From Candidatus Kaiserbacteria bacterium (GTDB lineage Bacteria; Patescibacteriota; Minisyncoccia; Phycocordibacterales; Phycocordibacteraceae): 64,000 nucleotides of DNA. The notes under the pieces were generated by a model. That model had not been told where the DNA came from. It searched no databases and was given only the letters and a program-made list of their open reading frames with translations. Positions 2,701 to 51,671 of this stretch are shown here, piece after piece (the stretch's first letter is position 1; each line of letters starts with the position of its first letter). Location: positions 55,779-119,778 of the forward strand of contig CAWEXP010000006.1 in assembly GCA_963813065.1 (NCBI GenBank), read 5' to 3'. A program made the translations under genes and the position numbers.

Positions 2701-2976
2701 ATGCCAACCAATAAAAATGTCGGCTACCAGACGTTTATTTCAACCTCTGAACTGGCGAGGCTTATGGGTGTTAGTCGGCAAGCAATTCTGAAAAAAATAA
2801 AAACCGGCAATATACATGCCCAAAAAGTCGGAAGGAATTACATCATACCGGCTGAAGAATTTGCTTCCGCGGTCGGAGAGTTTGTTTCTCAGAAGAAAAA
2901 AGAAGAAATTGAACGTGTGGTGAAAAAAGCGGTTAAAGAATACCGAGAGACGCTTCGTCTACTCGGGCGTGAATAA
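2701..2976 (+). CDS. HTH DNA-binding protein (excisionase/HTH_17-like); candidate antitoxin partner of the downstream Doc
   Basis: 91 aa with helix-turn-helix signature SELARLMGVSRQAILKKIK. Ends 4 nt before the Doc gene. Local AT-rich patch. Confidence 0.45.
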   Translation: MPTNKNVGYQTFISTSELARLMGVSRQAILKKIKTGNIHAQKVGRNYIIPAEEFASAVGEFVSQKKKEEIERVVKKAVKEYRETLRLLGRE

Positions 2977-2979
2977 GGT

Positions 2980-3444
2980 ATGGCGAGAAGGCCGATCAAG
3001 TCGCTATCGGTTGTTGAGGTTGAATATGTTGCGCACCGTCTTGCGCAAGAGTTGATGGATTATGGCGAGCCCATACCGCCGTTCAATACTCGTTTTCCAG
3101 ATCGTCTTGAAAGTTGCTTGAAAACTCCTTTCCAGAAGTTCGACAATAAAAGTCTTTATGCGGGCCTTGTGCTTAAGGCGGCAATGTTGTTCTACTTGAT
3201 GGTAAAAAATCATCCTTTTCAAAACGGCAACAAGAGAGTTGCGGTATTAACGTTGCTTGTTTTCCTCAGCGAGAATGGGCGTTGGTTGAAAGTAGCCAAT
3301 ATTACGCTCTACACATTTGCCAGAGAGATAGCAGAGAGTGACTCTGCGAAAAGCAGAGAAACAATAAGACACATCGTGGATTTCATAGAAAATTATGCCA
3401 TCCACTCTTCTGAAGATGAAATTGTGGAGGATGAAACGTTCTAA
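2980..3444 (+). CDS. Fic/Doc family toxin (death-on-curing-like)
   Basis: 154 aa with the Doc-type Fic motif HPFQNGNKRVAV (HxFx(N/D)GNKR). Confidence 0.6.
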   Translation: MARRPIKSLSVVEVEYVAHRLAQELMDYGEPIPPFNTRFPDRLESCLKTPFQKFDNKSLYAGLVLKAAMLFYLMVKNHPFQNGNKRVAVLTLLVFLSENGRWLKVANITLYTFAREIAESDSAKSRETIRHIVDFIENYAIHSSEDEIVEDETF

Positions 3445-9915: not shown

Positions 9916-12601
9916 ATGCCTCCATTCAACCACTTCACTACCAAAGCCAAAGAAGCCGTTCGTCGCGCGCACGAGCTCGCTATTGAGCGTGGGCAGAATC
10001 ACGTGTCCTCGCTCCACCTCCTCGCCGCCTTAGTGCTCCAAGAGGAGTCACTCGTCTTCTCGATGCTCGACCGGATGGAAGTTGACCCCATCATGCTTGC
10101 CGATTCGGTACTCGAAAATCTCGAAGCGCCGGAGTCCGCCTCAGTGCTCTCGCCCTCCTATCAGATTTATCTCACGCCCGATCTCGCCAAGGCGCTCGAG
10201 GCGGCAGGGAAGGTCGCGGCGCGGATGAACGAAAATTTCGTTGGTACCGAACATCTTTTTATCGCGCTCATCGAAGAGCCGGGTCCGGCGATGGAGATTC
10301 TCGCGCGTTTCCGCATCGACAAGGATTCTGCACTCGCGGTTTTGAAAGAATTGAAGAATAGTAAGGACGGCCAGATTACGGAGCCGAAGCGTTTCCGCGC
10401 GCTCTCCAAATATGCGCGTAATCTCACCAAGATGGCCGCCGACAATAAGCTCGACCCGGTCATCGGTCGCGACCAGGAGATTAATCGCGTCATCCAGATT
10501 CTCGCGCGCCGTACTAAGAATAATCCGGTCCTCATCGGCGAGCCGGGCACGGGCAAGACTTCTATTGCAGAAGGATTGGCGCTGCGCATGGCGACCAACG
10601 ACGTGCCGGAATCGATTCGCGGCAAGGAACTCCTCTCGCTCGATCTCGGTCTGCTTATCGCGGGCACCAAGTATCGCGGCGAATTTGAAGAGCGATTGAA
10701 AAATGTGATGAAGGAAGTCGAGCGCGCAGAAGGGAAGGTTATCCTTTTCGTCGACGAGCTCCACACCATTGTCGGCGCGGGTGGGGCAGAGGGCTCGCTC
10801 GATGCCTCGAACATGCTTAAGCCGGCGCTCAGCCGCGGCGAGCTCCGCATGATTGGTGCAACAACGTTGAAGGAGTATCAGAAATATGTCGAGAAGGATG
10901 CGGCGCTCACGCGGCGATTCCAGCCGGTCTTTGTCGCGGAGCCGACCGTCGAAGATGGTATCGCGATTCTGCGTGGCCTGCGCGACAAGTACGAGCTTTT
11001 CCACGGCGTGCGGATTACCGATGGCGCCATTGTCGCCGCGGTGGATCTCTCCGCGCGCTATATCAGCGATCGCTATTTGCCCGACAAGGCGATCGACCTG
11101 ATTGATGAAGCCGCCTCTGGCCTGCGTATCGCGCTCGAGAACAAGCCGCCGCTCCTCGAAGAAACCGACCGCAAAATTCGCCGCCTCGAGATTGAACGCC
11201 AAGCACTCTCGAAGGATGCCGAGACCGAGCAGAGCAAAGAGATTACCGAGCGCCTGAAGGCAATTGAGAAAGAAATTGCTGACCTGAAAGAGAAGACGAG
11301 CGAGCTCGAGCTGAAGTGGAAAAATGAAAAAGAAGTGCTTGAGGGTATCCGCGCCGAATAAGACTGAGCTGGAAAAATTGAAGACAGCAGGCCGACCTCG
11401 CCGATGTCGCCGCAGACCTCGGCACCGTCGCCGAGATTCGCTACGGCAAGATCCCGCAATTGCAAAAAGACTTGGAAGTGAAACTGAAGCGCTTGAAAAC
11501 GCTCCAGAAGTCGCGCCGCGTGTTGAATGAAGAAGTGACCGAGCACGAGATTGCGGCGGTTGTCGGTCGCTGGACCGGCATTCCCGTTTCCAGGATGCTC
11601 GAAGAAGAGGCGACGAAGCTCTCGCGCATGGAGGAGACGTTGAAGAAGACCATCATCGGCCAGGACGCGGCGATCCAGAAGGTCGCGGATGCGGTGAAGC
11701 GCTCGCGCGTCGGCATCAGCGACCCGAATCGGCCCATCGGCTCGTTCCTCTTCCTCGGGCCCACCGGCGTCGGCAAGACCGAGCTCTCGCGCCAGCTGGC
11801 GGAATTTATGTTCAACGATCCCGAGGCTCTGGTGCGCGTCGACATGAGCGAATTTATGGAGAAACACTCAGTGGCGAAACTCATTGGCGCACCGCCGGGC
11901 TATGTCGGCCACGAAGAAGCGGGCTCGCTGACCGAGCGCATGCGTCACCGCCCGTATGCCGTCATTCTCTTCGACGAAATCGAGAAGGCGCATCCGGAAG
12001 TCTTTAATATCCTCCTCCAAGTGCTCGACTCGGGGCACCTCACCGACTCAAGGGTCGCAAGGTCAATTTCAAGAACACGATTATCATTCTCACGAGCAAC
12101 ATCGGCGGGGAATACGTCGATCGCCTCGCGCATATCGGATTCGGCGCTACGGATGCCACCGACGCGACGCGCTACGAGGAGACGAAAGAAAAGGTGATGA
12201 ACGCTCTGAAGGATCACTTCCGTCCCGAGTTCCTCAATCGCCTCGACGACATCATCATCTTCGATGTGCTCTCGCGGGAGGCGCTCGCCGGTATCGTCGA
12301 GAAACAGGTCGCCGAAGTGGTCGGCCGACTCGCCGAGAAAAAGATTTCGCTCGCTATCACGCCCGAGGTGCGTGCCTGGCTCGCGGAGAAGGGGTACAGC
12401 CTGCAGTACGGCGCGCGCCCTCTGCGCCGCACCATCCAGGACAAGATCCTCACGCCGCTCGCGTCGCTGATGATCTCGCATGGCGTCAGCGAGGGTGGCA
12501 CGGTCACGGTCTCGTTGAAAAATGGCGAACCGAATTTTGAAGTCCAGAAACGCGCCCCGCGTGCGGTCAAAGCCTCGCGCGCGACTGCCGCGGTTGCCTA
12601 A
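9916..12601 (+). CDS. clpB: ClpB/ClpC-like AAA+ chaperone ATPase, interrupted by three apparent 1-nt frameshifts
   Basis: Clp_N repeats; AAA-1 Walker [10 protein letters not shown]; middle-domain coiled coil; AAA-2 Walker [10 protein letters not shown]; ClpB_D2-small in the third ORF. Frame breaks at ~11362, ~11400 and ~12050 (the last in the A run of tcaaggg). Confidence 0.8.
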
Positions 12602-12845: not shown

Positions 12846-13424
12846 GTGAAGACAGCGAAACTGCAACCAGGCGAGTGGGGTGTGCGTGGGCCAATCGAGT
12901 TCGAGGTGCCCTACGGCATCCCGGCCGATGTCGAATATGCTTTCAAAGAGGACGAGCGCGCCTGTTTCAAAGATGCGAAGAACTCAGTCGGGCGTTTCAA
13001 TCAATGCCGAACCAATTCACGCGAACGGAAAATTGTTCGTCCAATGCTCGGCGCTATTGCGATTCTCCCATACGCTGGCGTACTCTCAGATCAGCTGGAG
13101 AAGATTGTCGAAAATTTGACGGCGCTTGCCGGCTACACCGCGGCCGATGCCTACGAGCTCGCCGCGTGGGTCAAAAGGGTAGAGCGACGCAAGCTCTCGC
13201 CCGACATTCTCTTCGCGCCCTGTACCTTCACTCGCACGGCGCGGGACAACATCGATCTGCTCTGCTACGTTAAAACATTGCGCCGTTGTGAATTTCTCAA
13301 CGTCTCGCAAGGCTCGCTTACGAGCGAGTACGGTCCGGCGATGGTGCGCGGGGATAACTCGCACTGGCTCTTCAAGTCGCACATGACCGCCGGCGTGCTG
13401 TGCACCAAACCATTCAATCAATAA
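12846..13424 (+). CDS. Hypothetical protein
   Basis: 192-aa ORF with coding-like composition; no recognisable domain. Confidence 0.45.
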   Translation: MKTAKLQPGEWGVRGPIEFEVPYGIPADVEYAFKEDERACFKDAKNSVGRFNQCRTNSRERKIVRPMLGAIAILPYAGVLSDQLEKIVENLTALAGYTAADAYELAAWVKRVERRKLSPDILFAPCTFTRTARDNIDLLCYVKTLRRCEFLNVSQGSLTSEYGPAMVRGDNSHWLFKSHMTAGVLCTKPFNQ

Positions 13425-13429
13425 TAAAA

Positions 13430-13459
13430 ACGGCCCCAAATCGGGGCCGTCATTTTTTC
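13430..13459 (+). terminator. Rho-independent terminator (bidirectional position)
   Basis: ACGGCCCCaaatCGGGGCCGT hairpin followed by TTTTTT, immediately after the 12846-13424 stop. Confidence 0.7.
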
Positions 13460-13760
13460 AGATTGTCATCGGATCGACGGTAAGGGATGTGTCCTCGCGC
13501 CAGATCTCGTTGCCGTCATCGTCTTTGAGCACGACATTCCGCACGCGAACCGGTTCGCCGCGCGGGCCGATATTCGGTATGGGTAAGCGGCTGATGAAAT
13601 TTTGCGCAATAAAGATGGCCGCTCTATTACTCTCATCGCTTGACGTACCGCTCGGCACATCGACGGGCGCTGATTTGGGTTCCCAGACAATGGGGCCGCT
13701 ATGCGGCGAATCGCCAGGCCCGCGAGTGGGCTGTTCGAAGGTCAATTCGTACGTTTTCAT
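13458..13760 (-). CDS. Hypothetical protein
   Basis: Start placed at internal MKTYELTFEQ because the longer ORF would overlap tRNA-Trp. Confidence 0.4.
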   Translation of the reverse strand: MKTYELTFEQPTRGPGDSPHSGPIVWEPKSAPVDVPSGTSSDESNRAAIFIAQNFISRLPIPNIGPRGEPVRVRNVVLKDDDGNEIWREDTSLTVDPMTI

Positions 13761-13838
13761 CGCACGCTCCTTTTCGGGTGCTGATCTTCCTCCATCATCG
13801 CCCCCTGCGACCCGAGCGTCAAGTATTAAAAATAAAGG

Positions 13839-13909
13839 CGGGTCCACCAGGATTCGAACCTGGATTAACGGTTTTGGAGACCGTCGTTCTACCATTGAAC
13901 TATGAACCC
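13839..13909 (-). tRNA. tRNA-Trp (anticodon CCA)
   Basis: Minus-strand cloverleaf: GGGTTCA acceptor, anticodon loop CTCCAAA, T-arm CCAGGTTCGAATCCTGG. Confidence 0.8.
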
Positions 13910-14061
13910 GGAGTGAGGTCACGAGCGATACGTCTGCGTATTGCTCGTGCGCCGAACGCAGGGTTCACACGCTTACGTATGAACCCGTAGTGGAAGGGTA
14001 GCAGACTCGAGGCGGTGGGGAAAGCTGCTCTGGCGCCTTACAGAGGGAGTATGATGGCGGT

Positions 14062-15072
14062 ATGCGTTCTCGCTTGCCGCTTTTGGCACTGCTCGCCACC
14101 CTCGGGTCTTTTGCGCTCCCACTCTTTGCGCATGCCACGGGCATCCCGTACTTCGGCCCTGTGGTGCCGAGCAATGCCGCCACCTGCGCCGCTGGCTGGC
14201 AGAGCCTCATCCAACTCATCAACAACGCCGTCGCGGTGGGCATCACCATCGTCCTGCTCTTCATCGCGCCCATCATGATCGCCTACGCCGGTTTTCTCTA
14301 TGTGGTGAATCCGGTTAATCCGAGCGGAAGGAGCCAGGCGAATAAGATGATGCTCAATGTGGTCACGGGCATCGTTATCTCGCTCGCGGCCTGGCTCATT
14401 GTGGATGCGGTTCTCACGACGCTTACCAATCAGGGCGGCCTAAATGTTTGGACCGCCGGCATGTTTGGCGACGGCACCACGCCCTGCCTCATTACCGATG
14501 CCAGTTTGAATACTTTTAATCAGAGCACGGGACAGACGGTCACGAGCGCGAGCGCGAACAGCGCGGCGCTCTCGGGTACCGGTGTCGGCTCCTGCGATCC
14601 CATCGAGGTCGGTGTCGGCGCGTCGAATGGCGGGTATGCCACAACTGCGGCAGAGGACCAGGCGCTTGCCTGCATCGCGCGCTACGAGAGTTCCTGTGGC
14701 ACCAAGAATCCGCCCTACAATCTCAACTCGAGCTGGAACACTCCAATAGCTAGCGCGGGTGGCAAAGCATCAACTGCGGCCGGTGCATTCCAGGTGCTTC
14801 TTGCTTCGAATCATACCTGCTACGACAATAACGCCTGTGATGCGGCGGTAAACTTGCCTCCCGGCACGCCGCTCAATTGCAACAAGGCGTTTACCTCGCT
14901 CGGCCTTCCGATTGATGGTCCCGCTCTGCAACAATGCGAACAAGCGGCGGGAAATGTCGCGTGCAGTTCGGCGGCCGCAGCCTGTCTGCTCACCCAGCAA
15001 ACTTTTCTCAAAGCCTATGCGGCCGATTCCTATGCGCAGAGTTGCGCGAGCCAGGCCGGCTACAGTGGCTAA
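14062..15072 (+). CDS. Fusion protein: signal peptide + pilin-like two-helix membrane domain + C-terminal lytic transglycosylase (SLT/VirB1-like) domain
   Basis: N-terminus MRSRLPLLALLATLGSFALPLFAHA. Hydrophobic core AVGITIVLLFIAPIMIAYAGFLYVV, pilin-paralog-like. C-terminal SLT-type signature ARYESSCGTKNPPYNLNSS...AGAFQVL (ES...NP...S..GA.G.xQ). Confidence 0.5.
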   Translation: MRSRLPLLALLATLGSFALPLFAHATGIPYFGPVVPSNAATCAAGWQSLIQLINNAVAVGITIVLLFIAPIMIAYAGFLYVVNPVNPSGRSQANKMMLNVVTGIVISLAAWLIVDAVLTTLTNQGGLNVWTAGMFGDGTTPCLITDASLNTFNQSTGQTVTSASANSAALSGTGVGSCDPIEVGVGASNGGYATTAAEDQALACIARYESSCGTKNPPYNLNSSWNTPIASAGGKASTAAGAFQVLLASNHTCYDNNACDAAVNLPPGTPLNCNKAFTSLGLPIDGPALQQCEQAAGNVACSSAAAACLLTQQTFLKAYAADSYAQSCASQAGYSG

Positions 15073-15089
15073 TGCGCTATGATGCAACT

Positions 15090-15629
15090 ATGAAAAAAGT
15101 ACTTATCATCCTCGCAATTCTCCTCATTATTCTCGGCGCAGTGTATTTCTTTTTCTTCACTGCGAAGATGCCAAACACACTCATCACCGGTACGCCCGGC
15201 TTACCAGTTGCCGGTTCGCAGTTGACGCCCGTTGGCTCGGAGGCGTCGACCACGACGAGCGCAGCGGAAGTCACGGTCGCTGCGCGTGGCACGGACCAGC
15301 CGATCGTCGTCAATGATTTTGTGCACAACGGCACCACGGCGCCTGACCCTTCGAATACGGGTAATTATTATCTCGCGGGTATGAACGGGAGCGATTTCGC
15401 TATCAGCTACAACGCGACGAGCCAATTTTTCACCATCGCGCTCAACAAAGAGCCCATCGGCACTGCGCGGCTTGAGGCAGAGCAATTCCTCCTGAAGGCA
15501 CTTGGGATACCTGAGGCACAACTCTGTAATATTAATTATTATCTCGGCACCGACGTATACACCAACTCGCTCTATGCCGGCAAGAACCTCGGCTTCAGCT
15601 TCTGCCCGGGCGCAACCGCATTACCCTAG
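15090..15629 (+). CDS. Membrane-anchored hypothetical protein
   Basis: MKKVLIILAILLIILGAVYFFFF N-terminal TM helix followed by a soluble domain. Confidence 0.45.
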   Translation: MKKVLIILAILLIILGAVYFFFFTAKMPNTLITGTPGLPVAGSQLTPVGSEASTTTSAAEVTVAARGTDQPIVVNDFVHNGTTAPDPSNTGNYYLAGMNGSDFAISYNATSQFFTIALNKEPIGTARLEAEQFLLKALGIPEAQLCNINYYLGTDVYTNSLYAGKNLGFSFCPGATALP

Positions 15630-15682: not shown

Positions 15683-16654
15683 TCAACTCTGTTTTGTTCG
15701 CTTGCCTCGCACTCGTTTGCCAGCTTGCGGAGCCACGGCTTTTTGGCGACGGGCGTACTGCCACAGTTTAGCCGAAAGGGTAGGGAGAAGTGATTCTTTT
15801 GTGCGTTCATCACGCAAAAATTCGCCGACGATTTTGTACTCGAGACCGAGTTCGTTGAGGCGTAGTGCCTGCCCGGCTCGCTCGCGAGACGGGTCGCCAA
15901 CTTCTGCGCGCACGCGGGCGACCTCTTCGATAAGTCCGCGCTCCAGAGCGCTCGCGAGTCGCGCATCAATGTGTGCGCGCAATTCTTCGCGTGGTGGATC
16001 GATCATGATCCACTCGATTTGGTATTTGGGAAGGTCCTGTTTGTTCAGGTCAGACCTAAACAGTTGCTGTTTAGGTCTGACCTGAACAGGTCGCAGAGGG
16101 ACAGAGCCGCGAGCGGCAATAATCTCGAGCGCGCGGACGAGTCGGCGACGATTCTGCGGATCGAGCTCGGCCGCGCGGCGCGGGTCGGCTGTTTGTACTC
16201 TCGCAAACAGTTCTTCGGTCGAGAGCGTTCGAGCTCGGCGCGCAGTTCTGGATTCATGGCCACACTGCCGGGCAAACCTTTCAGCAATGCATCAAAATAA
16301 AAATGCGTCCCGCCGGCGAGGATCGGCAATTTCCCACGCGCGTTATCTCTGCGATCAGTCGCTCCGGCGTCGTGGACAAAATCTCCTGCCGAATAACTTT
16401 CGATTGCGTTGCGAATATCGATAAGGTGGTGAGATATGCCACGCATTTCCTCGCTCGTGTATTTTCTCCGTGCCAATGTCGAGGCCGCGGTAGACTTGGC
16501 GTGAGTCGACCGAAATCGACCTCGCCCCCCGCGCGAGCGCTTCTTGCACGGCCCGCGCGGATTTCCCCGAGGCGGTCGGCCCGGCGATGATAAGGATTTG
16601 CTCTGCCATCAGCCGCGATGGTATCCATAAATGTATGAAAGAAATGAAAAGCAA
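15683..16654 (-). CDS. miaA: tRNA dimethylallyltransferase MiaA, split into three ORFs by two apparent 1-nt frameshifts and carrying an in-frame palindromic insert
   Basis: P-loop GPTASGKS; motifs GISHHLIDI and ILAGGTHFY; C-terminal RALEIIAARG and WQYARRQ. Frame breaks at ~16448 (AAAA run) and ~16205. Confidence 0.65.
16037..16093. repeat. Palindromic element inserted in frame in miaA (CAGGTCAGACCTAAACAG-ttg-CTGTTTAGGTCTGACCTG plus imperfect flanks)
   Basis: 18-bp perfect inverted arms with 3-nt loop, extended by imperfect pairing. Translates without a stop in the miaA frame as RPVQVRPKQQLFRSDLNKQ. Confidence 0.7.
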
Positions 16655-17296
16655 TTATTGCGAGCATTGCGGCGAGTTCCACGATCATCCGGCCACGACT
16701 ATGTGAGCCAGGTGCGTGTTGGCGAGAGCGTGCCGGACTTCGAGTTCGAGGTCTACCAGAAGGAGAATATTAAAAAGATGTCGCTGTCCTCTCTGCGCGG
16801 CAAGTGGGCCGTGCTGGTCTTCTATCCGGCTGACTTCACGTTCGTCTGTCCGACCGAGCTCGAAGAATATGCGCATCTCTATTCGAAGTTCCAAGAATTG
16901 AATGCCGAAGTGATTTCGGTTTCCTCAGACACGGTCTTCACGCACAAGGCCTGGCACGACACGAGCGAGGCAATCAGCAGAATCAACTATCCGATGGCGG
17001 CTGACCCTTCGGGCAAATTGGCGTACGCCTTTGGCGTGCTCATTGAGGGTGGCGAGGCGGAGCTGACGCCGGACGAGGGTCTCGCTCTGCGCGGTACCTT
17101 CCTCATCGACCCGGCGGGCATCCTCCGCGCGATGGAGATCAACGACAATTCGATGGGCCGCAAGGCCGCCGAGACGCTCCGCAAGCTCCAGATGGCGCAG
17201 TACGTCGAGACGCACAAGGGTCAGGTCTGTCCGGCTTCGTGGGAGCCGGGTGACGACACGCTCGAGCCGGGGCTTGATCTGGTAGGGAAGATATAA
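16631..17296 (+). CDS. Peroxiredoxin (AhpC/Prx1 family, 2-Cys)
   Basis: FYPADFTFVCPTEL peroxidatic-Cys motif and resolving Cys near the C-terminus (VCPASW). True start probably downstream, e.g. GTG ~16703. Confidence 0.75.
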   Translation: MYERNEKQLLRALRRVPRSSGHDYVSQVRVGESVPDFEFEVYQKENIKKMSLSSLRGKWAVLVFYPADFTFVCPTELEEYAHLYSKFQELNAEVISVSSDTVFTHKAWHDTSEAISRINYPMAADPSGKLAYAFGVLIEGGEAELTPDEGLALRGTFLIDPAGILRAMEINDNSMGRKAAETLRKLQMAQYVETHKGQVCPASWEPGDDTLEPGLDLVGKI

Positions 17297-21112: not shown

Positions 21113-22342
21113 TTATTGATTCAACACTGCGCGGGTTGCGGGCCCGACGCTACCAACCTGGGCAATGCCATGCGCCGCTTGGAACTTCTTCACGCCCACA
21201 GCGGTCAGGGCGCCGAAGTAGCCGGTCAGGGGGCCATTGTAGAAACCGAGCGCAGTGAGGCGTTTTTGCAATTCGAGCACGGCCGCAGTGCGCGAGCCGA
21301 TCCCGAGCGCTGTAGTGAAGTGGTAGGCGAGCGCGGTGGTTGTTGGAGGAGTTGCGGTTGTCGTGGCGGTCGTCACTGCGGTTGGTGCGATTGCTGGAGC
21401 AACGACGGTTGTGGTGGGAGTCGCGGGTGCGGCCACAACCCAGATGCTCGCGGTGCTCGACGCAGAATTCCCATACGTGTCGGCGGCTGTAATGGTGATG
21501 AGGTGTGATCCGAGGTCGGCGACTGAGGGTGTCCAGTTGAACATGCCCGAGGAATTGAGTGTGCGTGCCGAGATGGTTGTAGTGCCGGCGAAGGAATCCG
21601 CAATGCTATACGTTGAACTCGCCAATCCGGAGACGCGAGTGATGAAGGAGATTGGGGAGCCAGTGGGCGCGCTCGGCGCGAGAGGCGGGATAGAAACCTG
21701 CGGATGAATAACGGTCACCTGTACGAAGGTTTGTGCGCTGTGCCCGTACGCGTCCGTAGCGCGGACGGTGAGCGAGTGCGCGCCGAGGTCGTCGATGCTT
21801 GGTTTCCATGAGAAGGCGCCAGAGGAATTTATGTTGCCCGGTGTGAGCGTTGTTGCGGCCGAAGAATCATAGACACTGAAGTAGGGAGTGGTGAATCCGG
21901 GTGCCGTGACCGTGAAGGTGAATGGATGCATGGTAGAGACAAACGGTCCGGGCGCGATATTGGTCACGAGTACATTGTTGCTCGCGACGAGAATGTTGAC
22001 GGTCGTCGAGGCCATATCCTTCGCCACGTCGTTGACCGATACCATAATGGTATGCAGGCCAGCATCGTAGATGCCCGGTGTCCAGCTATAATTGCCTGCC
22101 TTATCGATGTTCCCCGTCGTCGCGCCAGAGGCACTGAAGGCATCGCTGAGGGTATAGACCGGATCGCTAAAGCCGCTCGCCGATGCGATGAAGCTAACGG
22201 TTGCGCCTGGAGTAATGGCTCCGGTGGGCCAGAGTCCTTCTATTTGGACTGATGCCGCCAGCGCCGTTGAGGCACCAACCATCAACAGAGCGCCAGTAAT
22301 GCACGAACCACATATGATACGAAAAGAAAGTTTTGGATTCAT
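21113..22342 (-). CDS. Secreted repeat-domain (Ig-like) protein with C-terminal peptidoglycan-binding domain
   Basis: Signal peptide MNPKLSFRIICGSCITGALLMVGASTALA. Four ~70-aa beta-rich repeats. C-terminal PG_binding_1 motif LQKRLTALGFYNGPLTGYFGALTAVGVKKFQ. Confidence 0.65.
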   Translation of the reverse strand: MNPKLSFRIICGSCITGALLMVGASTALAASVQIEGLWPTGAITPGATVSFIASASGFSDPVYTLSDAFSASGATTGNIDKAGNYSWTPGIYDAGLHTIMVSVNDVAKDMASTTVNILVASNNVLVTNIAPGPFVSTMHPFTFTVTAPGFTTPYFSVYDSSAATTLTPGNINSSGAFSWKPSIDDLGAHSLTVRATDAYGHSAQTFVQVTVIHPQVSIPPLAPSAPTGSPISFITRVSGLASSTYSIADSFAGTTTISARTLNSSGMFNWTPSVADLGSHLITITAADTYGNSASSTASIWVVAAPATPTTTVVAPAIAPTAVTTATTTATPPTTTALAYHFTTALGIGSRTAAVLELQKRLTALGFYNGPLTGYFGALTAVGVKKFQAAHGIAQVGSVGPATRAVLNQ

Positions 22343-22410
22343 AGTTTTACTATATCATTTGCTGAAGTTGTGCTATAAGGACGCCGGAATAGATTCGGGA
22401 GGAATCAGCC

Positions 22411-23082
22411 ATGCGCCTCACCAGCGTCGTTCTGTGTCTTCTACTAGCCGTGCCCGCATCGGCAGGTTCTGCGCCGATTAATGCCGTACATACCAGCACG
22501 CCCTGCGTCGCACTCACGTTCGACGATGGACCCGACAGAGTACAGACGCCGCGATTACTCGCCATTCTCGAGCAGAGGCATATCTCGGCGACGTTCTTCG
22601 TCATCGGGACACGCGTGACTGCGCACCCAGAAATTGTGCGACGAGCGCATGACGACGGTGATGAAGTCGGGAACCATTCGTGGAACCATCCGTTCTTCAC
22701 GCTTATCGCGAGTCGAGATGTGCGTTGGCAAATTCATCGCACCGATACGGCAATCAACTCTGCGACGGGCAGTATGCCGGTGCTTCTCCGTGCGCCGTAC
22801 GGCTCGTTGAGTCACCGTGTGCTCGGTCTCGAGAAGCGTTCGTTTATCGGATGGAACGTTGATACGCTCGACTGGCATCACCACGATACGGCGTGGATTG
22901 TGCAGTCGCTAGATGCGGTGCACGATGGTTCGATTATCATCATGCACGACACGCATGCCACAACCATCGATGCAGTGCCCGAGGTCATCGATCGTTTGAT
23001 TGCCCGTGGATTTTTCTTCGGGACGGTGTCAGAGCTCAGAGCGGGTACGTGCCCCATGCCCGATATCATTCCGGGAACATAG
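22411..23082 (+). CDS. Polysaccharide deacetylase (NodB homology domain), secreted
   Basis: Signal peptide; NodB motifs CVALTFDDGP, HSWNHP, metal-binding His. Confidence 0.75.
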   Translation: MRLTSVVLCLLLAVPASAGSAPINAVHTSTPCVALTFDDGPDRVQTPRLLAILEQRHISATFFVIGTRVTAHPEIVRRAHDDGDEVGNHSWNHPFFTLIASRDVRWQIHRTDTAINSATGSMPVLLRAPYGSLSHRVLGLEKRSFIGWNVDTLDWHHHDTAWIVQSLDAVHDGSIIIMHDTHATTIDAVPEVIDRLIARGFFFGTVSELRAGTCPMPDIIPGT

Positions 23083-23112
23083 TTCCGCCGCGGCTCCTGC
23101 CGCGGCGGTTTT

Positions 23113-24135
23113 TCATTTTTGCAATACGCTATAGACACTCGGGAGCTCGAGGCCGAGCGCCCATGCGGAGAAGCCGTAGAGCCCCTCTTTTTTAATTAAT
23201 GCCATTTTATCTGCCAAGCTTCGCGCGTTTTCGTACCATATCGAAAATTCTTGGGCATGGCTCCAATAGACGAGGTACGGTTCGTGTTCGGTCGCACTGT
23301 AGTAGTAGCTCACTTTGTGTTTCTTGATGACATTCTCGATGCCTTGATTACCGCCAATGCCAACGCGTTTGCCCGCCGCATTGTTCCATTGCCAGTAGTA
23401 GAGCCCGATGCCGAGTGATATTTTCTGCGCAGGGATATGGGCGAGGCTGTAGGCGAGGACTTTCTGATACCAATCATATTCTGCAACGGGACCCTTCGAC
23501 TCGGGGTCGTCATAGGCCATGACGCTGACAAAATCGGTGCTCGAAGCGAGCGCGCCGTAGTCGTACACACCCGCAAGGTCTTGCCAGAGCGTGCCCTGAT
23601 ACTCAATCGGCATGTCCGAGATCTTGGCGACGACCGCCACACTGAGAACGAGACCATTCGCTCGCAGTACCGTGTCCAGATTCTGGACGAATGTGGAAAA
23701 TTTGTCTCGATAGGACGCATCCATCTGCTCGAAGTCGATCTGCCAGCCCCAGTAGCCTTGTTTCTTTGCTTCCTGCACGAGCGAGCTGATGGCCGCCGCT
23801 TGCGTGGTCGATGAATCGAGCAGGTTCTGGTACGCGGTCTGCCCAAAGTCGTCGTTGGTCACCAGGGGCATGACCTTGATGTGGTGTTTCGCCGCGAAGG
23901 TGAGGAGGGCAGGATCAACACTCCCAACCAGCGCACCGGTCCCCTGGAGTGCATACGATTGTGGCGCGAAAATATCAATGGAACTCGGATGCGCGAAGAA
24001 AGACTTCCGCGCCAGCGTTCCTTCGCGATAATAAAAGAGACGCACCGGAGCCGCCGCATGTGCTGAGTATGCTCCCATACCGAGCGAGATGCCGATACCG
24101 AGAGAAAGGAGTAGTGTGCGAGCGGCAGGAGACAT
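23113..24135 (-). CDS. Glycoside hydrolase family 18 protein, secreted
   Basis: Signal peptide. GH18 catalytic motif GWQIDFE (DxxDxDxE-like). Resembles YaaH/YdhD-type peptidoglycan/chitin hydrolases. Confidence 0.65.
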   Translation of the reverse strand: MSPAARTLLLSLGIGISLGMGAYSAHAAAPVRLFYYREGTLARKSFFAHPSSIDIFAPQSYALQGTGALVGSVDPALLTFAAKHHIKVMPLVTNDDFGQTAYQNLLDSSTTQAAAISSLVQEAKKQGYWGWQIDFEQMDASYRDKFSTFVQNLDTVLRANGLVLSVAVVAKISDMPIEYQGTLWQDLAGVYDYGALASSTDFVSVMAYDDPESKGPVAEYDWYQKVLAYSLAHIPAQKISLGIGLYYWQWNNAAGKRVGIGGNQGIENVIKKHKVSYYYSATEHEPYLVYWSHAQEFSIWYENARSLADKMALIKKEGLYGFSAWALGLELPSVYSVLQK

Positions 24136-25820: not shown

Positions 25821-26048
25821 ATGAAGACGATGACCTGCGCACAGATGGGCGGCCCCTGCGACACTGCGATCACCGCCGAGACCGAAGACGAAATGATGGC
25901 GAAGGGCATGGCACACCTCGAGAGCGCGCATCCCGAGATGGCCGCCAAAGTGAAGGCGACGCCAAAGGATGATCCGATGATGGTCGCGTGGGGCGAAAAG
26001 TTCCATGCGGACTGGGCCGCGGCTCCGGAAGTGCCGGCTGCGGTTTAG
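25821..26048 (+). CDS. DUF1059-like small metal-binding protein
   Basis: [40 protein letters not shown] matches the DUF1059 pattern. Confidence 0.6.
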
Positions 26049-26130
26049 ACATCTCACGAGAGGAGGAAAACGCCCGTTCGGGCGTTTTCGCGTTTACAGA
26101 AACGGTTGGCACCGTGATACCATAAGCCCC

Positions 26131-26469
26131 ATGAATGAATCCATTTTGGTGGTCACCACCAACGACGTGCCGGGCTACGAGGTGGTGAAGGTCTACGGCG
26201 AGGTTTTCGGCTTGCTGGTGCGGAGTCGCAATCTCGTGAGCAATATCGGCGCGGGCTTGAAGGCGATTATTGGTGGCGAGATAGGCGGCTATACCAAGCT
26301 CCTGAGCGACAGTCGCATCGAGGCAATCGAGCGGATGAAGCAGGCGGCGGCCGAGAAGGGCGCGAACGCAGTCCTGATGATGCGCTTCGACACGGGCGAC
26401 ATCGGCGCGTCGATGAACGAAGTTGCCGCGTACGGCACCGCGGTCACCATCCGCCCCCTCGCACACTAA
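26131..26469 (+). CDS. YbjQ/UPF0145 family protein
   Basis: 112 aa with [20 protein letters not shown]...AVLMMRFD... pattern. Confidence 0.65.
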
Positions 26470-26591
26470 TGGCTGACCACGACGATTTCAAAACGCATAT
26501 CAAAGAGCCGCGTTGGCAACAGGTGGTGAGCATCCTCATTGTCCTCGTCGTTTTCGCCGTGTGGCTCTGGCTCGCTGTGCATCGGGGATAA
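26469..26591 (+). CDS. Small single-TM protein (40 aa)
   Basis: [40 protein letters not shown]. Start overlaps the previous stop. Confidence 0.3.
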   Translation: MADHDDFKTHIKEPRWQQVVSILIVLVVFAVWLWLAVHRG

Positions 26592-26907
26592 TTTTTCAAA
26601 GAAGCAAGAGCTTCTGGAGTAGGAAAAAGAAAAAAGCCGCTCACGTTCGCCAGCCGGCGGACTACAACCAACTCCTTACATTTATTCCTAGTTTTCCAAA
26701 CTCTGCTCCCGGAACATCACCTCCATATACCGTCTCTTTTCAATAGGGAATACATGGAAAATATGGCTCACCAATTGAGGGTTATTCGATTGATGGAAAG
26801 AACGGATGGTGAAGTTAAATGCGTTTAAATACCTTGAGTTCGGCGACTCCTTCATTCCGTGAGACTAATATAACTTGCTGGCGAATGGGTGTTAGAATAG
26901 GCCAATC

Positions 26908-29418
26908 ATGGGCCAAATATCGAAAAAACGGGACAATAAAGACATTTCTCTCGAGCAGTACCAACATACAACTGTGAAGCGGGCCAATAATCCGCAAGTC
27001 GGACTCGTTAGCGGTACCTTGGATTCAAAGCCGAAAAAGAAAACATACCAACATGACCCGTATATTGATCCAACATTGTCTTGGGCGGGTAAGGCCGAAG
27101 GTGCTTCGTTTGGTGTTGATACTGTCTCGCTTCATATCCACGAACGGATAGATCCAAAAAGAATAATAAAACAAGTCCTAAAAAAGACTGAAGAAACAGT
27201 TAAATTGCAGCCATCACTTTTTGAACAACCGAGCGAAAATTTGAATACAGAAAAAGAGTTTGATTTTTATGGCCACACCAAAAACTGGTCAAATCGTCTT
27301 ATCGCCGGAGACAGCTTGCTCGTCATGAACTCTCTTCTGGAAAAAGAGAAAATGGCTGGGAAAGTACAGATGATTTATATAGATCCCCCGTATGGGATTA
27401 AATACAACTCAAACTTTCAACCTTTCACAAATAAGAGAGACGTGAAAGACAGGGACGACGACAGCATTCCTGCTGAACCAGAGATGATTAAAGCGTTTCG
27501 AGACACGTGGGAGCTTGGCATCCACAGCTACCTCACATATTTGCGAGATCGTTTACAGCTTTCGCACGACTTGCTGCATGAAAGCGGTAGTATTTTCTTG
27601 CAGATCTCCGACGAGAACGTACACCACATTAGAGAGTTGCTAGATGAGATTTTCGGGATGGAAAACTTTGTGGCGCAGATCAACTTCCGTAGCATGTCCC
27701 CGCTCGGTCAGTCTGGGATGGCGAGGGTCTACGATTACATACTCTGGTACGCCCGCGACAAGAAGAAAATGAAATACCGATCTATTTTTATAAACAGAGA
27801 AATCGAGGAGGAGCCCGAATTTTGCTATCTCGATACTGGCGATGGTTTGTATAAGAAGTTGAACCGCGAGGAAATAGCGGCTTTGCCTGCCGATCAAAGA
27901 AAAAAGATCTTCAAGAGGTCAACCCTCACGTCTTCTGGCTACACGCCCTCTTGCACCTATCCTTTCGAGTTGGGTGGGAAGGAATATCGTCCGCTTAGTG
28001 GGAAAAGTTGGCGAACTCATCCGGAGGGAATGAAGAAACTGATTGCCAAGCACCGCATCTTTGTACTCGGCCAGAATCCGTACTTCAAGCAGTACCACTC
28101 TGATTTTCCGTTCGTGCAACTCGAAAACGGATGGAAGGATACGGCCGCAGGATTTAGTGATCAGAAAATATATGTTGTGCAGACAAACAATAAAGTGATC
28201 GAGCGATGTGTTCTGATGGTCACGGATCCAGGAGATTTGGTCCTGGACCCGACTTGTGGCTCTGGCACGACAGCGTATGTAGCAGAACAGTGGGGTCGTC
28301 GTTGGATCATGTGCGATACTTCCCGTGTGGCAATCCAACTTGCAAAACAACGGTTGATGACCAGTCAATTTGATTATTACGAAATGGCACAACAAGAAGA
28401 AGGTGTCTCGTCTGGATTTAAATATAAAACCGTTCCACACACCACACTTGGAAGTGTTGCGAACAACGAACTAACCAAAGAAGAGACTCTCTATAATCAG
28501 CCATTTGTCATAAGAGATAAAGTTCGGGTGACTGGACCATTCACAGTAGAGGCCGTTCCGGGCATCCGCACCAAGCCAATTGAAGGAAATCTCCCGGATG
28601 TATCTGACAAAACAAATCCAACGAATCCGATTTCCGAGAAATTGAACGACTACCTCGATAGCATTCGTGCTTCAGGCATTCGCTCATACCACAATGAAGG
28701 AATTACATTCAACAGCGTAGAAGTTTCCGAAGGATTTAATGAAATTCATGCATTTGGAAATATTGATAGCAATGGGGAATATAAAAAGTGTGCAATAGTC
28801 TTTGGCCCTGATTATGCTCCCATGGAACAGACCCAAATTGAGCGAACAATGGACGAAATTAGAAATATGGCTGAGAAACCAAACATGGTCATCTTTTGTT
28901 CGTATGCTTTTGACCCCGAAGCATCAAAGGATGTTGATAACATAAAAATATCCGGTCTCCAGATTTTGAAAGCTCAAATGAATACGGACTTGCTCACTAA
29001 AGATTTAAAGAAAAAAGCAAACGCAGACAGACCATTTTGGCTCATTGGGGAACCAGATATTGAAATCAATAAAACCAAAGAAGGGAAATTCCAAGTGGAG
29101 GTGAAGGGATTCGATTACTATGATCCTCGTACCCAGGAGCTCAAGGGTGGCAGTACAGACAAAATTGCTGTCTGGATGATTGATACAGATTACGACAATA
29201 GATCCCTATTCCCCTCACAGATATTTTTCCCAATGCAAGATCAGAAAAGAGATTGGACTAAACTTGCAAAAGCGTTAAATGGGAGTGTAGACGAAGAGTT
29301 ATTGGAGCAATATACTGGCACAACATCAATACCTTTCGCATCAGGCGATAAACGAACCATAGCGGTAAAAATAGTCGATGACCGCGGTGTTGAGATGTTA
29401 GTGGTCAAGAAAATATAG
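26908..29418 (+). CDS. mod: Type III restriction-modification Mod subunit (N6-adenine/N4-cytosine beta-class DNA methyltransferase) with long C-terminal extension
   Basis: Motif IV IYIDPPY precedes motif I DPTCGSGTT (beta-class order). 836 aa, with ~350 aa after the MTase core. 4-nt gap to res. Confidence 0.75.
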   Translation: MGQISKKRDNKDISLEQYQHTTVKRANNPQVGLVSGTLDSKPKKKTYQHDPYIDPTLSWAGKAEGASFGVDTVSLHIHERIDPKRIIKQVLKKTEETVKLQPSLFEQPSENLNTEKEFDFYGHTKNWSNRLIAGDSLLVMNSLLEKEKMAGKVQMIYIDPPYGIKYNSNFQPFTNKRDVKDRDDDSIPAEPEMIKAFRDTWELGIHSYLTYLRDRLQLSHDLLHESGSIFLQISDENVHHIRELLDEIFGMENFVAQINFRSMSPLGQSGMARVYDYILWYARDKKKMKYRSIFINREIEEEPEFCYLDTGDGLYKKLNREEIAALPADQRKKIFKRSTLTSSGYTPSCTYPFELGGKEYRPLSGKSWRTHPEGMKKLIAKHRIFVLGQNPYFKQYHSDFPFVQLENGWKDTAAGFSDQKIYVVQTNNKVIERCVLMVTDPGDLVLDPTCGSGTTAYVAEQWGRRWIMCDTSRVAIQLAKQRLMTSQFDYYEMAQQEEGVSSGFKYKTVPHTTLGSVANNELTKEETLYNQPFVIRDKVRVTGPFTVEAVPGIRTKPIEGNLPDVSDKTNPTNPISEKLNDYLDSIRASGIRSYHNEGITFNSVEVSEGFNEIHAFGNIDSNGEYKKCAIVFGPDYAPMEQTQIERTMDEIRNMAEKPNMVIFCSYAFDPEASKDVDNIKISGLQILKAQMNTDLLTKDLKKKANADRPFWLIGEPDIEINKTKEGKFQVEVKGFDYYDPRTQELKGGSTDKIAVWMIDTDYDNRSLFPSQIFFPMQDQKRDWTKLAKALNGSVDEELLEQYTGTTSIPFASGDKRTIAVKIVDDRGVEMLVVKKI

Positions 29419-29422
29419 GTGT

Positions 29423-32152: not shown

Positions 32153-32156
32153 TCTT

Positions 32157-32288
32157 ATGGACGAGGAACTCTTCGAACTTGCAAAAGATAACGACCTAAC
32201 TCTAGACGAGGCGCAGGAGGTTCAAGATCTTGCCGACGAAACGGGACTAGACCTGGAAGAGGCGTTAGAGATTTGGCAGGCGCAATAA
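32157..32288 (+). CDS. Small acidic protein (43 aa) immediately after res
   Basis: MDEELFELAKDNDLTLDEAQEVQDLADETGLDLEEALEIWQAQ starts 5 nt after the res stop. ~35% Asp/Glu. Confidence 0.35.
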   Translation: MDEELFELAKDNDLTLDEAQEVQDLADETGLDLEEALEIWQAQ

Positions 32289-32290
32289 CC

Positions 32291-32743
32291 CTAATCGCCC
32301 CGTTCTAGTTGCGCAACGAGTTCAACAATCCCAATCCCTCCTTGGTGCTGGATCGTCTCCTTGGGCTTGCCGATTGTATGTTCGAGCAGTAGCCGTGCGG
32401 CGTTGGTGTCGGGTGCCAATTCAGATACAGATTGTCTCCCCTTAAAGTCGGTACGAGTGATGCGAAGATTCCCGATAGCGGCTTGGATTTGAGCATCGAG
32501 AATGGGGTCAAGTTTCTCAACTATCTTCTGTACCATGCGCTCTCGAATCATTTGAGTAATGAGTGTCTTGCTTGCTACTGGCCGCCCCCCTTTTATTTTT
32601 TCCGGAAACATCGAGTTAATTATATAATTCGTTTTCAACTCCTCTGTAGATATAGTCGGTACTTCGCGTCTACGCCGTTTGTTCGCCTCGCAGCGAGGAG
32701 TCATTACTTGGTTGGGTATAGGATGCCTTTGCCCGGTAAACAA
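32291..32743 (-). CDS. Hypothetical protein (island operon gene 4)
   Basis: 150-aa ORF; basic N-terminus; no domain recognised. Confidence 0.4.
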   Translation of the reverse strand: MFTGQRHPIPNQVMTPRCEANKRRRREVPTISTEELKTNYIINSMFPEKIKGGRPVASKTLITQMIRERMVQKIVEKLDPILDAQIQAAIGNLRITRTDFKGRQSVSELAPDTNAARLLLEHTIGKPKETIQHQGGIGIVELVAQLERGD

Positions 32744-33393
32744 CTGTCAGACGCGGAGATAAGTATGGGATTGTCGTGCTTATCGAAGGTGTAGGTATTC
32801 GTCGTCCCGCACTCCGATGACATATGCCAATAAACATCGACTTCTCCGGTTTTGGGGAAAGATAAGAAACCAAATACCGAGCCATCGGTGTCCCGCTCCA
32901 TTGAGATAGTGGTCGTTGAGCCAGCGTCAGAATAGAAGTCAAATCCAATTACGTGACGAACTAATCCTTTCTTTTCTTCAAGTAGGGCAAAGTATGGGCA
33001 TCCACCACTGCCGCAAAAACCGACAACGAGAGGATCAACGAAGTAGAGAACCTTTCCGTCGGAAAGAGTAGTCGAGGCTACATCAGACTGATTTCCGCAT
33101 AAAAAGTCAGAAAGGGGGTAAGGCTTCACAAAGTCGGATAGTTCGTTGTCGATAGGATCGTTGCCGCTGCCACTGTTCTCATAGTACGGAACACAGTTCG
33201 GATTAATTGCTCCAAGCTCTTCAATATAATTCGGGTCGAAAGTATTAGGCGAGAAATCATCTTTAGATAAAGTATCCAAGACGGCTTTCCCAGCAGCTTG
33301 CTGGTACACGATAGGATAGGCAATAAAGAGTCCAGCGAAGACAATTGCGACGAGGCCGCATAGAAGTAAGAGTCTGGTGCCCAGATTTTTCAT
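32704..33393 (-). CDS. Membrane-anchored extracytoplasmic Cys-containing hypothetical protein (island operon gene 3)
   Basis: N-terminal MKNLGTRLLLLCGLVAIVFAGLFIAYPIV TM helix. Start overlaps the upstream gene. Confidence 0.45.
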   Translation of the reverse strand: MKNLGTRLLLLCGLVAIVFAGLFIAYPIVYQQAAGKAVLDTLSKDDFSPNTFDPNYIEELGAINPNCVPYYENSGSGNDPIDNELSDFVKPYPLSDFLCGNQSDVASTTLSDGKVLYFVDPLVVGFCGSGGCPYFALLEEKKGLVRHVIGFDFYSDAGSTTTISMERDTDGSVFGFLSFPKTGEVDVYWHMSSECGTTNTYTFDKHDNPILISASDSCLPGKGILYPTK

Positions 33394-33632
33394 ACCATCC
33401 ATTCGTACCACTCTTTTTCTCTTGCCACCGGTCGATTGTTTTCCCCTCTTTCTCGCAACCCTCTAGTCTCTGATTCAAGGCTAAATATTTTTTGTTGTAG
33501 AGCATTTATTACGCTCGCTGCGTTATGGCTTTTGTCCTCGAAGTACCAAATAACAAGAAAGGCGAGAAAACCAGCGCCGCCGCTATTACTCGCTCCTCCT
33601 ATTATGAATCCCCATAAAATTGCCCATACCAT
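33390..33632 (-). CDS. Small membrane protein with C-terminal coiled coil (island operon gene 2)
   Basis: 80 aa; MVWAILWGFIIGG... TM helix; overlapping start/stop with neighbours. Confidence 0.4.
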   Translation of the reverse strand: MVWAILWGFIIGGASNSGGAGFLAFLVIWYFEDKSHNAASVINALQQKIFSLESETRGLRERGENNRPVAREKEWYEWMV

Positions 33633-33634
33633 AG

Positions 33635-34234: not shown

Positions 34235-34494
34235 GTGGGTAGAGGCTTGCGCCTCTCATACGAGTTTCCCCGTATGGCCGGTAAAGACGACCCCACATGA
34301 TGGGTTTCCGCGTCTTTACCGGACTTCTCCAGCCATGCCCAGCCCGGAGGCTGAGTTTAGGCCATATCGCACCCTTGTATCGTACTCGGTCTGGAGCTTA
34401 TGTGAAGGCGGAACGTGCTTTCTACAAAAAACCAGAAACAGAAAAAACCATAGATTCTATGGCTTCTTCTGAGGTTATATTAACTGGCCTTCGG

Positions 34495-34566
34495 CTCCGC
34501 GGGTAGGACTCGAACCTACAACCAACTCCTTAACAGGGAGCTGCTCTACCATTGAGCTACCGCGGA
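34495..34566 (-). tRNA. tRNA-Asn (anticodon GTT)
   Basis: Minus-strand cloverleaf: acceptor TCCGCGG/CCGCGGA, anticodon loop CTGTTAA, T-arm GTAGGTTCGAGTCCTAC. Confidence 0.8.
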
Positions 34567-51614: not shown

Positions 51615-51671
51615 AAGCGAGTAGTGTATAACCCGCACGCACATCCCATAGGCTTTGCTATAGTAGTACGT

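Follow-up and report, generated by a model that had tools for sequence, protein, structure and literature searches.

We examined a 64,000-nucleotide stretch of DNA (hereafter, the window) from a Candidatus Kaiserbacteria bacterium (GenBank assembly GCA_963813065.1; contig CAWEXP010000006.1, positions 55,779 to 119,778 of the forward strand), with attention to a gene at positions 14062 to 15072 (+ strand). The original prediction, made from the sequence alone, described its product as a pilin-like membrane domain fused to a VirB1-like lytic transglycosylase domain. The gene is complete, with an ATG start and a TAA stop (15070 to 15072), and encodes a pilin-anchored, lysozyme-like protein of 336 amino acids (aa); the list of open reading frames (ORFs) contains no in-frame start upstream of the ATG at 14062. 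When 5.8 billion protein clusters were searched, 180 homologues were obtained, most of which were 320 to 350 aa long and aligned end to end with the query (36 to 57% identity). All of the homologues with a taxon name belonged to Patescibacteria (i.e., Kaiserbacteria or Paceibacterota). An identical protein was encoded on an independent short-read contig (L001), and 19 loci from species-representative genomes were all derived from Patescibacteria or from unclassified metagenome-assembled genomes. On the basis of the 180 homologues, the identical copy in an independent assembly, and the synteny observed in 25 related loci (see below), we conclude that the ORF is a real and intact gene, not a chance ORF.

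The N-terminal part of the protein has the look of a Sec signal peptide (aa 1 to 25; 14062 to 14136, +), starting with MRSR, continuing with a hydrophobic core, and ending with AHA (i.e., MRSRLPLLALLATLGSFALPLFAHA followed by T, with a presumed cleavage site between them). Four residues of this peptide (M1, R2, P20, and H24) were conserved in the homologue alignment. It is followed by a predicted extracytoplasmic segment (aa 26 to 45; 14137 to 14196, +) containing an IP(F/Y)FGP motif and Cys42, in which P29, F31, G32, P33, and C42 were invariant or nearly so. The next feature (aa 47 to 117; 14200 to 14412, +) is a two-helix membrane hairpin of the VirB2-like T4SS_pilin type (PF18895; T4SS, type IV secretion system), recognized from the Pfam match, hydropathy, the AlphaFold2 model, and homology to paralogs. 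Its two segments of high hydrophobicity (Kyte-Doolittle peaks, 2.7 and 2.4) flank a short loop, NPVNPSGRSQANK, which is the sole K/R-bearing part of the hairpin region, and the full-length AlphaFold2 model placed helices at residues 46 to 82 and 87 to 122. This layout, consisting of a signal peptide and then two hydrophobic helices with a short positive loop, is that of PF18895 proteins. The PF18895 model matched aa 47 to 117 over model positions 2 to 71 of 71 (E = 7.2e-5), and the NCBIfam model for the Mbov_0395 family pilin-like conjugal transfer protein matched at an E value of 9.5e-6 (a subthreshold 25.2 bits; cut-off, 40). Orthologues exceeded the PF18895 cut-off, with scores of 28.9, 30.1, 48.5, and 51.7 bits. 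Following the positive-inside rule, the loop would lie in the cytoplasm, with the two ends of the hairpin, as well as the C-terminal domain, outside.

Homology of this region to other pilin-type proteins in the window was also detected. All five ORFs at 25 to 2529 were PF18895 members with scores above the cut-off, and the N terminus of the protein matched each of them (phmmer E values, 1e-6 to 2e-4; hhalign probability, 91%). The first half of the original prediction, namely a signal sequence with a two-helix core resembling the pilin paralogs, was therefore corroborated by family models, hydropathy, and structure prediction. Residues 1 to 122 are assigned by these comparisons to a signal peptide plus a hairpin homologous to the VirB2-like T4SS_pilin family and to the paralogs at 25 to 2529.

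The paralogs form a T4SS_pilin array (25 to 2529, +; L027:2428-5278), with five genes in the window and a sixth just upstream of its edge, and its members are divergent in sequence. Genes for an ABC-type (ATP-binding cassette) solute-binding protein and a methyltransferase lie upstream of the array. One paralog (636 to 1754) has a C-terminal extension of about 290 aa composed of Cys-rich repeats (GGDCE.N..AC.SG..CQ...NGDDTCV). Right after the array and a tRNA-Leu, a small helix-turn-helix (HTH) protein and then a Fic-domain protein are encoded (2701 to 3444, +; annotation of L027), and these may represent a toxin-antitoxin-like pair.

The hairpin is connected to the C-terminal domain by a linker of about 55 residues (aa 123 to 177; 14428 to 14592, +), which was modeled with low confidence (AlphaFold2 predicted local distance difference test [pLDDT], <50 over residues 126 to 174). 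W130 is conserved in this linker and C142 is invariant; a disulfide between C42 and C142 is possible, judging from this conservation. The C-terminal domain (aa 178 to 336; 14593 to 15069, +) was predicted with a pLDDT of 89.7 and a predicted template modeling score of 0.86 from an alignment of 25 sequences. In the model, a first helix is followed by a second one with Glu209 at its end, a small region of beta-hairpin with GAFQV, a Cys-rich insertion, and further helices; the predicted order of elements is that of lysozymes. The translation placed the ES motif (proposed catalytic Glu209 and Ser210) at 14686 to 14691 (+) and the GAFQV motif (aa 241 to 245), which corresponds to GIFQI of lysozyme C and to GLMQ of SLT enzymes, at 14782 to 14796 (+).

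The family membership of the C-terminal domain was assessed with the protein itself, with its relatives, and with profiles built from them. The single sequence was uninformative in this regard: phmmer against the PDB yielded nothing, and PF18896 (SLT_3) did not match the protein at E values of up to 10. The C-type lysozyme model (PF00062, Lys) was matched weakly by 2 of the 25 closest relatives. Distant orthologues with the same N terminus and linker matched PF18896 at or above the cut-off (14 to 29.7 bits among distant relatives; cut-off, 27), and one distant orthologue passed PF01464 (SLT; 22.3 bits; cut-off, 21.3). When the alignment of the domain was compared with the domains of these SLT_3- or SLT-positive orthologues by hhalign, probabilities of 96% (E = 4.8e-9) and 97.8% (E = 8e-13) were obtained, with ES and GxFQ in register in the alignments to the SLT_3-type orthologues.

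Profiles built from the family led to animal lysozymes. A broad profile (A4) searched against all PDB sequences gave 228 matches, of which the best 60 were all named lysozyme, and the top match was human lysozyme C (E = 6.4e-6). In the alignment to human lysozyme, CLAKWES was placed on aCIAxxES (Glu35 on E209 and Cys30 on C204), GIFQI on GAFQV (G55 and Q58 on G241 and Q244), and AW...C116 on W...C328. Because A4 included SLT_3-type sequences, a strict profile was built from the 76 sequences retrieved by the domain itself, without the SLT_3-type sequences added. This profile matched human lysozyme C at an E value of 1.5e-3 (with Z set to the size of the PDB) and retrieved nothing for T4 lysozyme. 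A profile of the SLT_3-type orthologues (A6) matched PDB lysozymes over nearly the whole fold (E = 3e-5; best match, Lysozyme C-2), and there were no SLT-named chains among its best 60 PDB matches. Invertebrate-type lysozymes were matched more weakly than the C-type. These profile comparisons place residues 178 to 336 in the lysozyme superfamily, and they indicate that the closest solved sequences are those of animal C-type lysozymes and not those of SLT enzymes.

The likeness to animal C-type lysozymes (GH22; i.e., human lysozyme and the bovine stomach lysozyme C-2), which were the best solved profile matches, extends over most of the fold (CxAxxES, GxFQI, and AW...C), and both groups are small, disulfide-rich, and extracellular (as predicted for the present domain). 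They differ in that the protein examined here is bacterial and membrane tethered, contains the Cys-rich insertion, has Ala in place of the Asp52/53 nucleophile/base, and has a disulfide pattern that, according to the profile alignment, is only partly superposable.

To what extent an active site is retained can be seen in the alignment of 206 domains. E209, G241, and Q244 were present in all 206 domains, and S210 was present in 188, so the SLT-type catalytic signature that had been recognized from the letters alone is a conserved feature of the family; the context of the catalytic Glu was likewise kept, as E209 is the residue aligned with Glu35 of human lysozyme. In the AlphaFold2 model, Glu209 is located at the C-terminal end of helix 196 to 209. 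The domain contains ten Cys residues, of which eight (C178, C204, C212, C259, C273, C292, C301, and C328) were invariant or nearly so, whereas C308 was present in 153 of the 206 domains and C253 was outside the tabulation. The Glu35/Asp52(53) pair of C-type lysozymes was retained only in its first member. The place of lysozyme Asp53 is occupied by A239, two residues before GAFQV, where 189 domains had Ala, 13 had Ser, and none had Asp or Glu. Furthermore, the stretch from the Glu to GxxQ contained no Asp or Glu at all in 122 of the 206 domains, and no column in it was >9% acidic.

In lysozymes, the second acid lies on strand beta-2 in the retaining c-type enzymes and on beta-1 in the inverting g- and v-type enzymes, while lytic transglycosylases have none and single-Glu sites are the rule among them (PMC7511926). 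Given that no second catalytic carboxylate is conserved, the putative single-Glu site points to the chemistry of a lytic transglycosylase in preference to that of a hydrolytic lysozyme. The lytic transglycosylase assignment of the original prediction is thus favored as far as chemistry is concerned, but membership in a VirB1-like family is not, because no SLT or VirB1 model was matched by the protein and the closest solved relatives are C-type lysozymes. The family 1 lytic transglycosylases (SLT, PF01464, GH23, including Mlt) share with the present domain the ES motif, a GLMQ-like GAFQ, and the lack of a second acid; they differ in that the protein has no direct hidden Markov model or fold match to them. 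The Mlt enzymes are lipoproteins of diderm bacteria, whereas the anchor described here is a two-helix hairpin in a lineage of the monoderm type. Another bacterial enzyme of the lysozyme superfamily with an ES motif and disulfides is DslA, a diverged lysozyme that the predator Bdellovibrio uses in an inter-bacterial lifestyle and that structure comparisons placed between C-type lysozymes and GH23 (PMC7511926). DslA is a secreted hydrolase whose second catalytic Glu is on the first beta-strand; no equivalent acid was conserved in our domains, and the two are likened here by description only.

An alternative that bears directly on these residues is that the domain is a non-catalytic, wall-binding or adhesin-like module, in which the lysozyme-like fold is kept as a glycan binder, as in alpha-lactalbumin or the sperm lysozyme-like proteins. 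Such a role would account for the lack of a direct match to enzyme family models, for the absence of the second catalytic acid of hydrolytic lysozymes, and for the Cys-rich insertion (about 45 residues) that the short SLT_3-type relatives lack. Inactive lysozyme homologues, however, typically lose exactly the general-acid Glu (PMC7511926) that is present here in 206 of 206 domains, together with the conserved S210, G241, and Q244, and the single-Glu arrangement is normal for lytic transglycosylases. We consider a purely binding function very improbable.

To determine how tightly the domain is coupled to its anchor, the C-terminal profile alone was searched against 1.84 billion representative proteins (E ≤ 1e-3). 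The search resulted in 129 proteins, 114 of which carried the N-terminal pilin module. Since the remaining 15 were either fragments of truncated genes or large, repeat-containing proteins whose domain scores were marginal, this lysozyme-like lineage appears to occur only on a pilin-type hairpin (i.e., as an obligate fusion). The distant matches combined strong PF18895 scores (up to 51.7 bits) with weak SLT_3 scores. In relatives, the same hairpin and linker also bear other cargo, including a short SLT_3-type domain and a type with ESGGN...GLMQVN, and paralogous fusions gave weak, subthreshold matches to CHAP or NlpC/P60 (P0119 and P0109). The cargo of one relative (P0117) had no match in a Pfam scan and a follow-up search. 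These predicted types suggest that the cargo on the hairpin targets peptidoglycan. Metallopeptidase cargo, which was suspected by eye in two further proteins (P0098 and P0111), was unsupported by Pfam, and a PDB search with P0111 was also negative.

The gene is located in a conserved neighborhood. In the window, the genes are ordered as IF-2, class-V aminotransferase, ClpB, L33, tRNA-Trp, the lysozyme-like gene, a partner gene of 185 aa, miaA, peroxiredoxin, ParB, and Nramp. Six related contigs shared the order ClpB-L33-[gene]-partner-miaA-peroxiredoxin-ParB, including contigs in which the gene encodes a short SLT_3-type or a GLMQVN-type domain; one related contig had an NlpC/P60-type paralog in tandem. 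In 24 of 25 loci, the partner was the next gene downstream, and miaA followed in 22 of 25. Genes for a MurA-like protein, two MreB proteins, two penicillin-binding proteins (PBPs), and a Mur ligase are present farther along the window, from which we deduce that the organism makes its own peptidoglycan. In terms of secretion machinery, no VirB4, VirB6, or VirD4 was found among the larger ORFs scanned in the window or among the called genes around the lysozyme-like gene in six related loci. The locus is a conserved, vertically inherited housekeeping neighborhood and not a T4SS cluster, and the link to a VirB system drawn in the original prediction, in which the fusion would substitute for a separate VirB1, did not find support at this locus.

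The absence of T4SS genes bears on a second alternative, that of the original prediction, which put the wall-cutting activity at the base or tip of a filament and considered penetration of a host wall possible. According to it, the patescibacterial T4SS would extract the VirB2-like module from the membrane and polymerize it, and the protein would be a minor or tip subunit of a pilus, displaying a lysozyme-like head that drills through the donor or host wall. Several observations are compatible with this idea. The anchor is homologous to VirB2-like pilins, and the domain is essentially found only in fusion with the pilin module, which suggests that the module does more than anchor; the array paralog at 636 to 1754 likewise has a large C-terminal extension, predicted to be extracellular. 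Patescibacterial T4SS and VirB2-like pilins were reported from 1,948 assemblies, often as arrays of 2 to 11 genes, and VirB1 homologues were described as rare in Patescibacteria, recognizable ones being missing in most of those with VirB2 homologues, with the remark that the task of VirB1 could fall to other glycosidases (PMC12102498). In one cultivated Saccharibacterium, the one species tested, the T4SS and the VirB2-like pilins were essential (PMC12857230). On the other hand, the gene lacks T4SS machinery in its vicinity and is situated in a vertically inherited housekeeping locus, and no virB4 was found within 2.7 kb upstream of the pilin array itself. To our knowledge, no characterized VirB2 carries a C-terminal load of 210 residues. 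In the portions of the literature consulted, a pilus composed of PF18895 proteins was not demonstrated. A pilus-borne wall-cutting subunit is therefore an unlikely explanation.

A bolder version of this idea, to which we assign a somewhat lower probability still, is that of a "muralytic pilin," in which the VirB2-like module would genuinely serve as a signal for assembly and the protein would be a polymerizable subunit of a patescibacterial T4SS-related filament with a wall-cutting head. Alternatively or additionally, the family and SLT_3 together would be a bacterial sister group of the animal C- and invertebrate-type lysozymes, bridging GH22 and GH23. The A4 and A6 profiles, which matched lysozymes in spite of the missing lysozyme Asp, may represent such a sequence bridge. 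A muralytic pilin, if real, would explain both the rarity of recognizable VirB1 in VirB2-bearing Patescibacteria and the way in which an epibiont breaches the wall of its host.

The partner gene (15072 to 15629, +) was called in L001, and its start may be an MKK located 6 codons downstream. As called, it begins on the last base of the lysozyme-like gene's stop codon (an overlap of 1 nucleotide), to which gene it would be translationally coupled, and no terminator-like site was found between the two genes (the promoter/terminator scan was otherwise uninformative). The partner protein was 37 to 52% identical to the products of the same-position genes in six other loci. A membrane helix at its N terminus precedes a conserved extracytoplasmic domain ending with GKNLGFSFCPGAxxLP, in which GFSFCPGA..LP is invariant, and the protein had no relatives in Pfam, NCBIfam, or the PDB. 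A single partner family lies downstream of all three lysozyme-like subtypes. A role of the partner as a subtype-matched immunity protein was rejected, as the family is constant whichever subtype lies upstream; a general regulator or inhibitor is possible.

These observations on cargo and partner are relevant to a third alternative, which is compatible with our preferred explanation given below. The protein may be a host-directed weapon or feeding enzyme that opens the host peptidoglycan at the epibiont-host contact for nutrients, with the partner protecting the producer or regulating the activity. A long flexible linker could reach past the cell's own wall, the exchange of cargo on a constant N-terminal module resembles that of polymorphic effectors, and a tightly coupled downstream gene occupies the usual position of an immunity protein. 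Against this, the partner does not vary with the subtype as an immunity gene would, the gene occurs as a single copy in a syntenic housekeeping context in 25 loci, unlike accessory effector loci, and the organism's own peptidoglycan needs remodeling enzymes. The data examined included no experimental host for this lineage. We regard host-directed use as possible but on the improbable side.

Our preferred explanation, which we estimate at a probability of roughly 70%, is that the protein is a membrane-tethered, outward-facing enzyme that cleaves the glycan strands of peptidoglycan. In this scheme, the Sec signal peptide would direct export, and the VirB2-like hairpin, with two transmembrane helices and a short positive cytoplasmic loop, would keep the protein in the cytoplasmic membrane with both ends outside. 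The flexible linker of about 55 residues would bear the compact, disulfide-rich domain of the lysozyme superfamily, in which Glu209 would act as the single catalytic acid beside a small beta-sheet with the invariant GxxQ, the chemistry being more probably that of a lytic transglycosylase than that of a hydrolytic lysozyme. Together with the presumably cotranscribed, membrane-anchored partner, the gene would form a two-gene cassette that is vertically inherited in Patescibacteria of the Paceibacteria/Kaiserbacteria type. The context points to a role in the local opening or remodeling of peptidoglycan at the cell surface as a core envelope function; possible purposes include growth or cell separation, the passage of envelope-spanning machines, and the host-cell contact zone. 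A core envelope role is the most economical one, because the gene is inherited vertically at a single housekeeping locus and the organism has its own wall-synthesis genes.

Several results weigh against a membrane-tethered, wall-cleaving enzyme. The protein itself had no Pfam lysozyme or SLT match, and in a member-by-member Pfam scan, SLT and SLT_3 matched none of the 25 closest relatives (PF01464 was absent likewise). The narrow 25-sequence profile retrieved nothing from the PDB. Neither of the two structural models had a significant Foldseek match in the PDB, and matches to a viral library were nonsignificant (best E value, 0.16), although the names retrieved were mostly SLT (LT_GEWL), lysozyme, and tail lysozyme. 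At the N terminus, the PF18895 score of the protein was 23.2 bits, under the gathering cut-off of 26.6. The lysozyme-like nature of the C-terminal half, as originally predicted, is thus upheld through the orthologue profiles and the PDB lysozymes but not by a direct family match, and the predicted structure, while confident and lysozyme-like in its order of elements, is not backed by a fold match in the PDB. Topology, disulfides, and activity are features that we infer, and the evidence is compatible with either the cell's own wall or a host wall as the substrate. Finally, the function of the partner gene, strictly conserved as it is, is left unexplained by the model.

Among proteins already represented in databases, the closest in architecture are patescibacterial proteins that combine PF18895 and PF18896 (P0115, P0107, and P0096). 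These agree with the protein examined here in the signal peptide, the pilin hairpin, and the conserved linker and occupy the same chromosomal position between L33 and the partner/miaA, and their C-terminal domains are homologous to the present one in profile-to-profile comparisons, with ES and GxFQ aligned. The domain described here is longer by about 45 residues, has extra conserved Cys residues, and is missed by PF18896 and PF01464. The two Pfam accessions are consecutive, and in some sources, members of the homologue set carry no annotation other than "pilin"; at the database level, the architecture thus has precedents. In the parts of the literature on PF18895/PF18896, VirB2-like pilins, and Patescibacteria that we consulted, no description of a pilin-lysozyme fusion was found. 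What is new is a longer, Cys-rich subfamily missed by current models, whose domain is apparently confined to the pilin hairpin, together with its conserved partner gene, its housekeeping synteny, and the combination of animal C-type lysozymes as the nearest solved sequence relatives with a predicted active site that is nevertheless transglycosylase-like.

VirB1 and the T4SS hydrolases of monoderm bacteria (PrgK and TraG of pIP501) offer a functional comparison. They have in common with the present protein a lysozyme-superfamily domain, the ES motif, and a single Glu, and the job proposed here for the protein, namely local opening of peptidoglycan, is also theirs. An N-terminal transmembrane segment likewise anchors hydrolases of the PrgK/TraG type in the membrane (PMC12102498). 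Our gene differs in being apart from T4SS genes, in matching no VirB1 or SLT model, in having a pilin-type hairpin instead of a single helix as the anchor, and in lacking a second CHAP domain.

Much of bacterial diversity belongs to the Patescibacteria, whose members live in attachment to other microbes, and how they handle their own walls and breach those of their hosts is largely unknown. The role of the patescibacterial T4SS was described as completely unknown (PMC11665869). The protein is a candidate, and a clonable one, for the missing wall-opening activity in this group. Its fused architecture allows a test of whether patescibacterial "pilin" modules are filament subunits or mere membrane anchors. 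In addition, the affinity to C-type lysozymes combined with a putative single-Glu site bears on the relations among lysozyme families.

Other features of the window were recorded. Between L33 (12631 to 12786) and the lysozyme-like gene, extra sequence (12846 to 13922) that was not seen in the related loci inspected contains a 192-aa ORF without a Pfam match and the tRNA-Trp (13837 to 13909, −). The reading frame of ClpB (9916 to 12601, +) shifts near 11356 and 12051, which divides the gene among three frames, and miaA (15683 to 16688, −) is fragmented into two or three ORFs. In all of the related loci, neither gene is disrupted, and the lysozyme-like gene itself is intact; the breaks reflect either pseudogenization or assembly indel errors. 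A wall/glycan cluster (21113 to 24135) encodes a 409-aa protein with immunoglobulin-like and PG_binding_1 domains, a polysaccharide deacetylase, and a GH18 glycosidase. The gene for a PBP2-type transpeptidase is immediately followed by one (51624 to 53342, +) for a 572-aa protein with a Peptidase_S74 domain (endosialidase/phage tail fiber intramolecular chaperone). A region with low G+C content (about 26000 to 34500; 0.41 to 0.49, compared with about 0.57 elsewhere) ends at a tRNA-Asn (34493 to 34566). Encoded in it are an 836-aa N6/N4 DNA methylase and a ResIII helicase of 909 aa that also bears a TnsA-like endonuclease domain; the region is probably a restriction-modification island gained by horizontal transfer.

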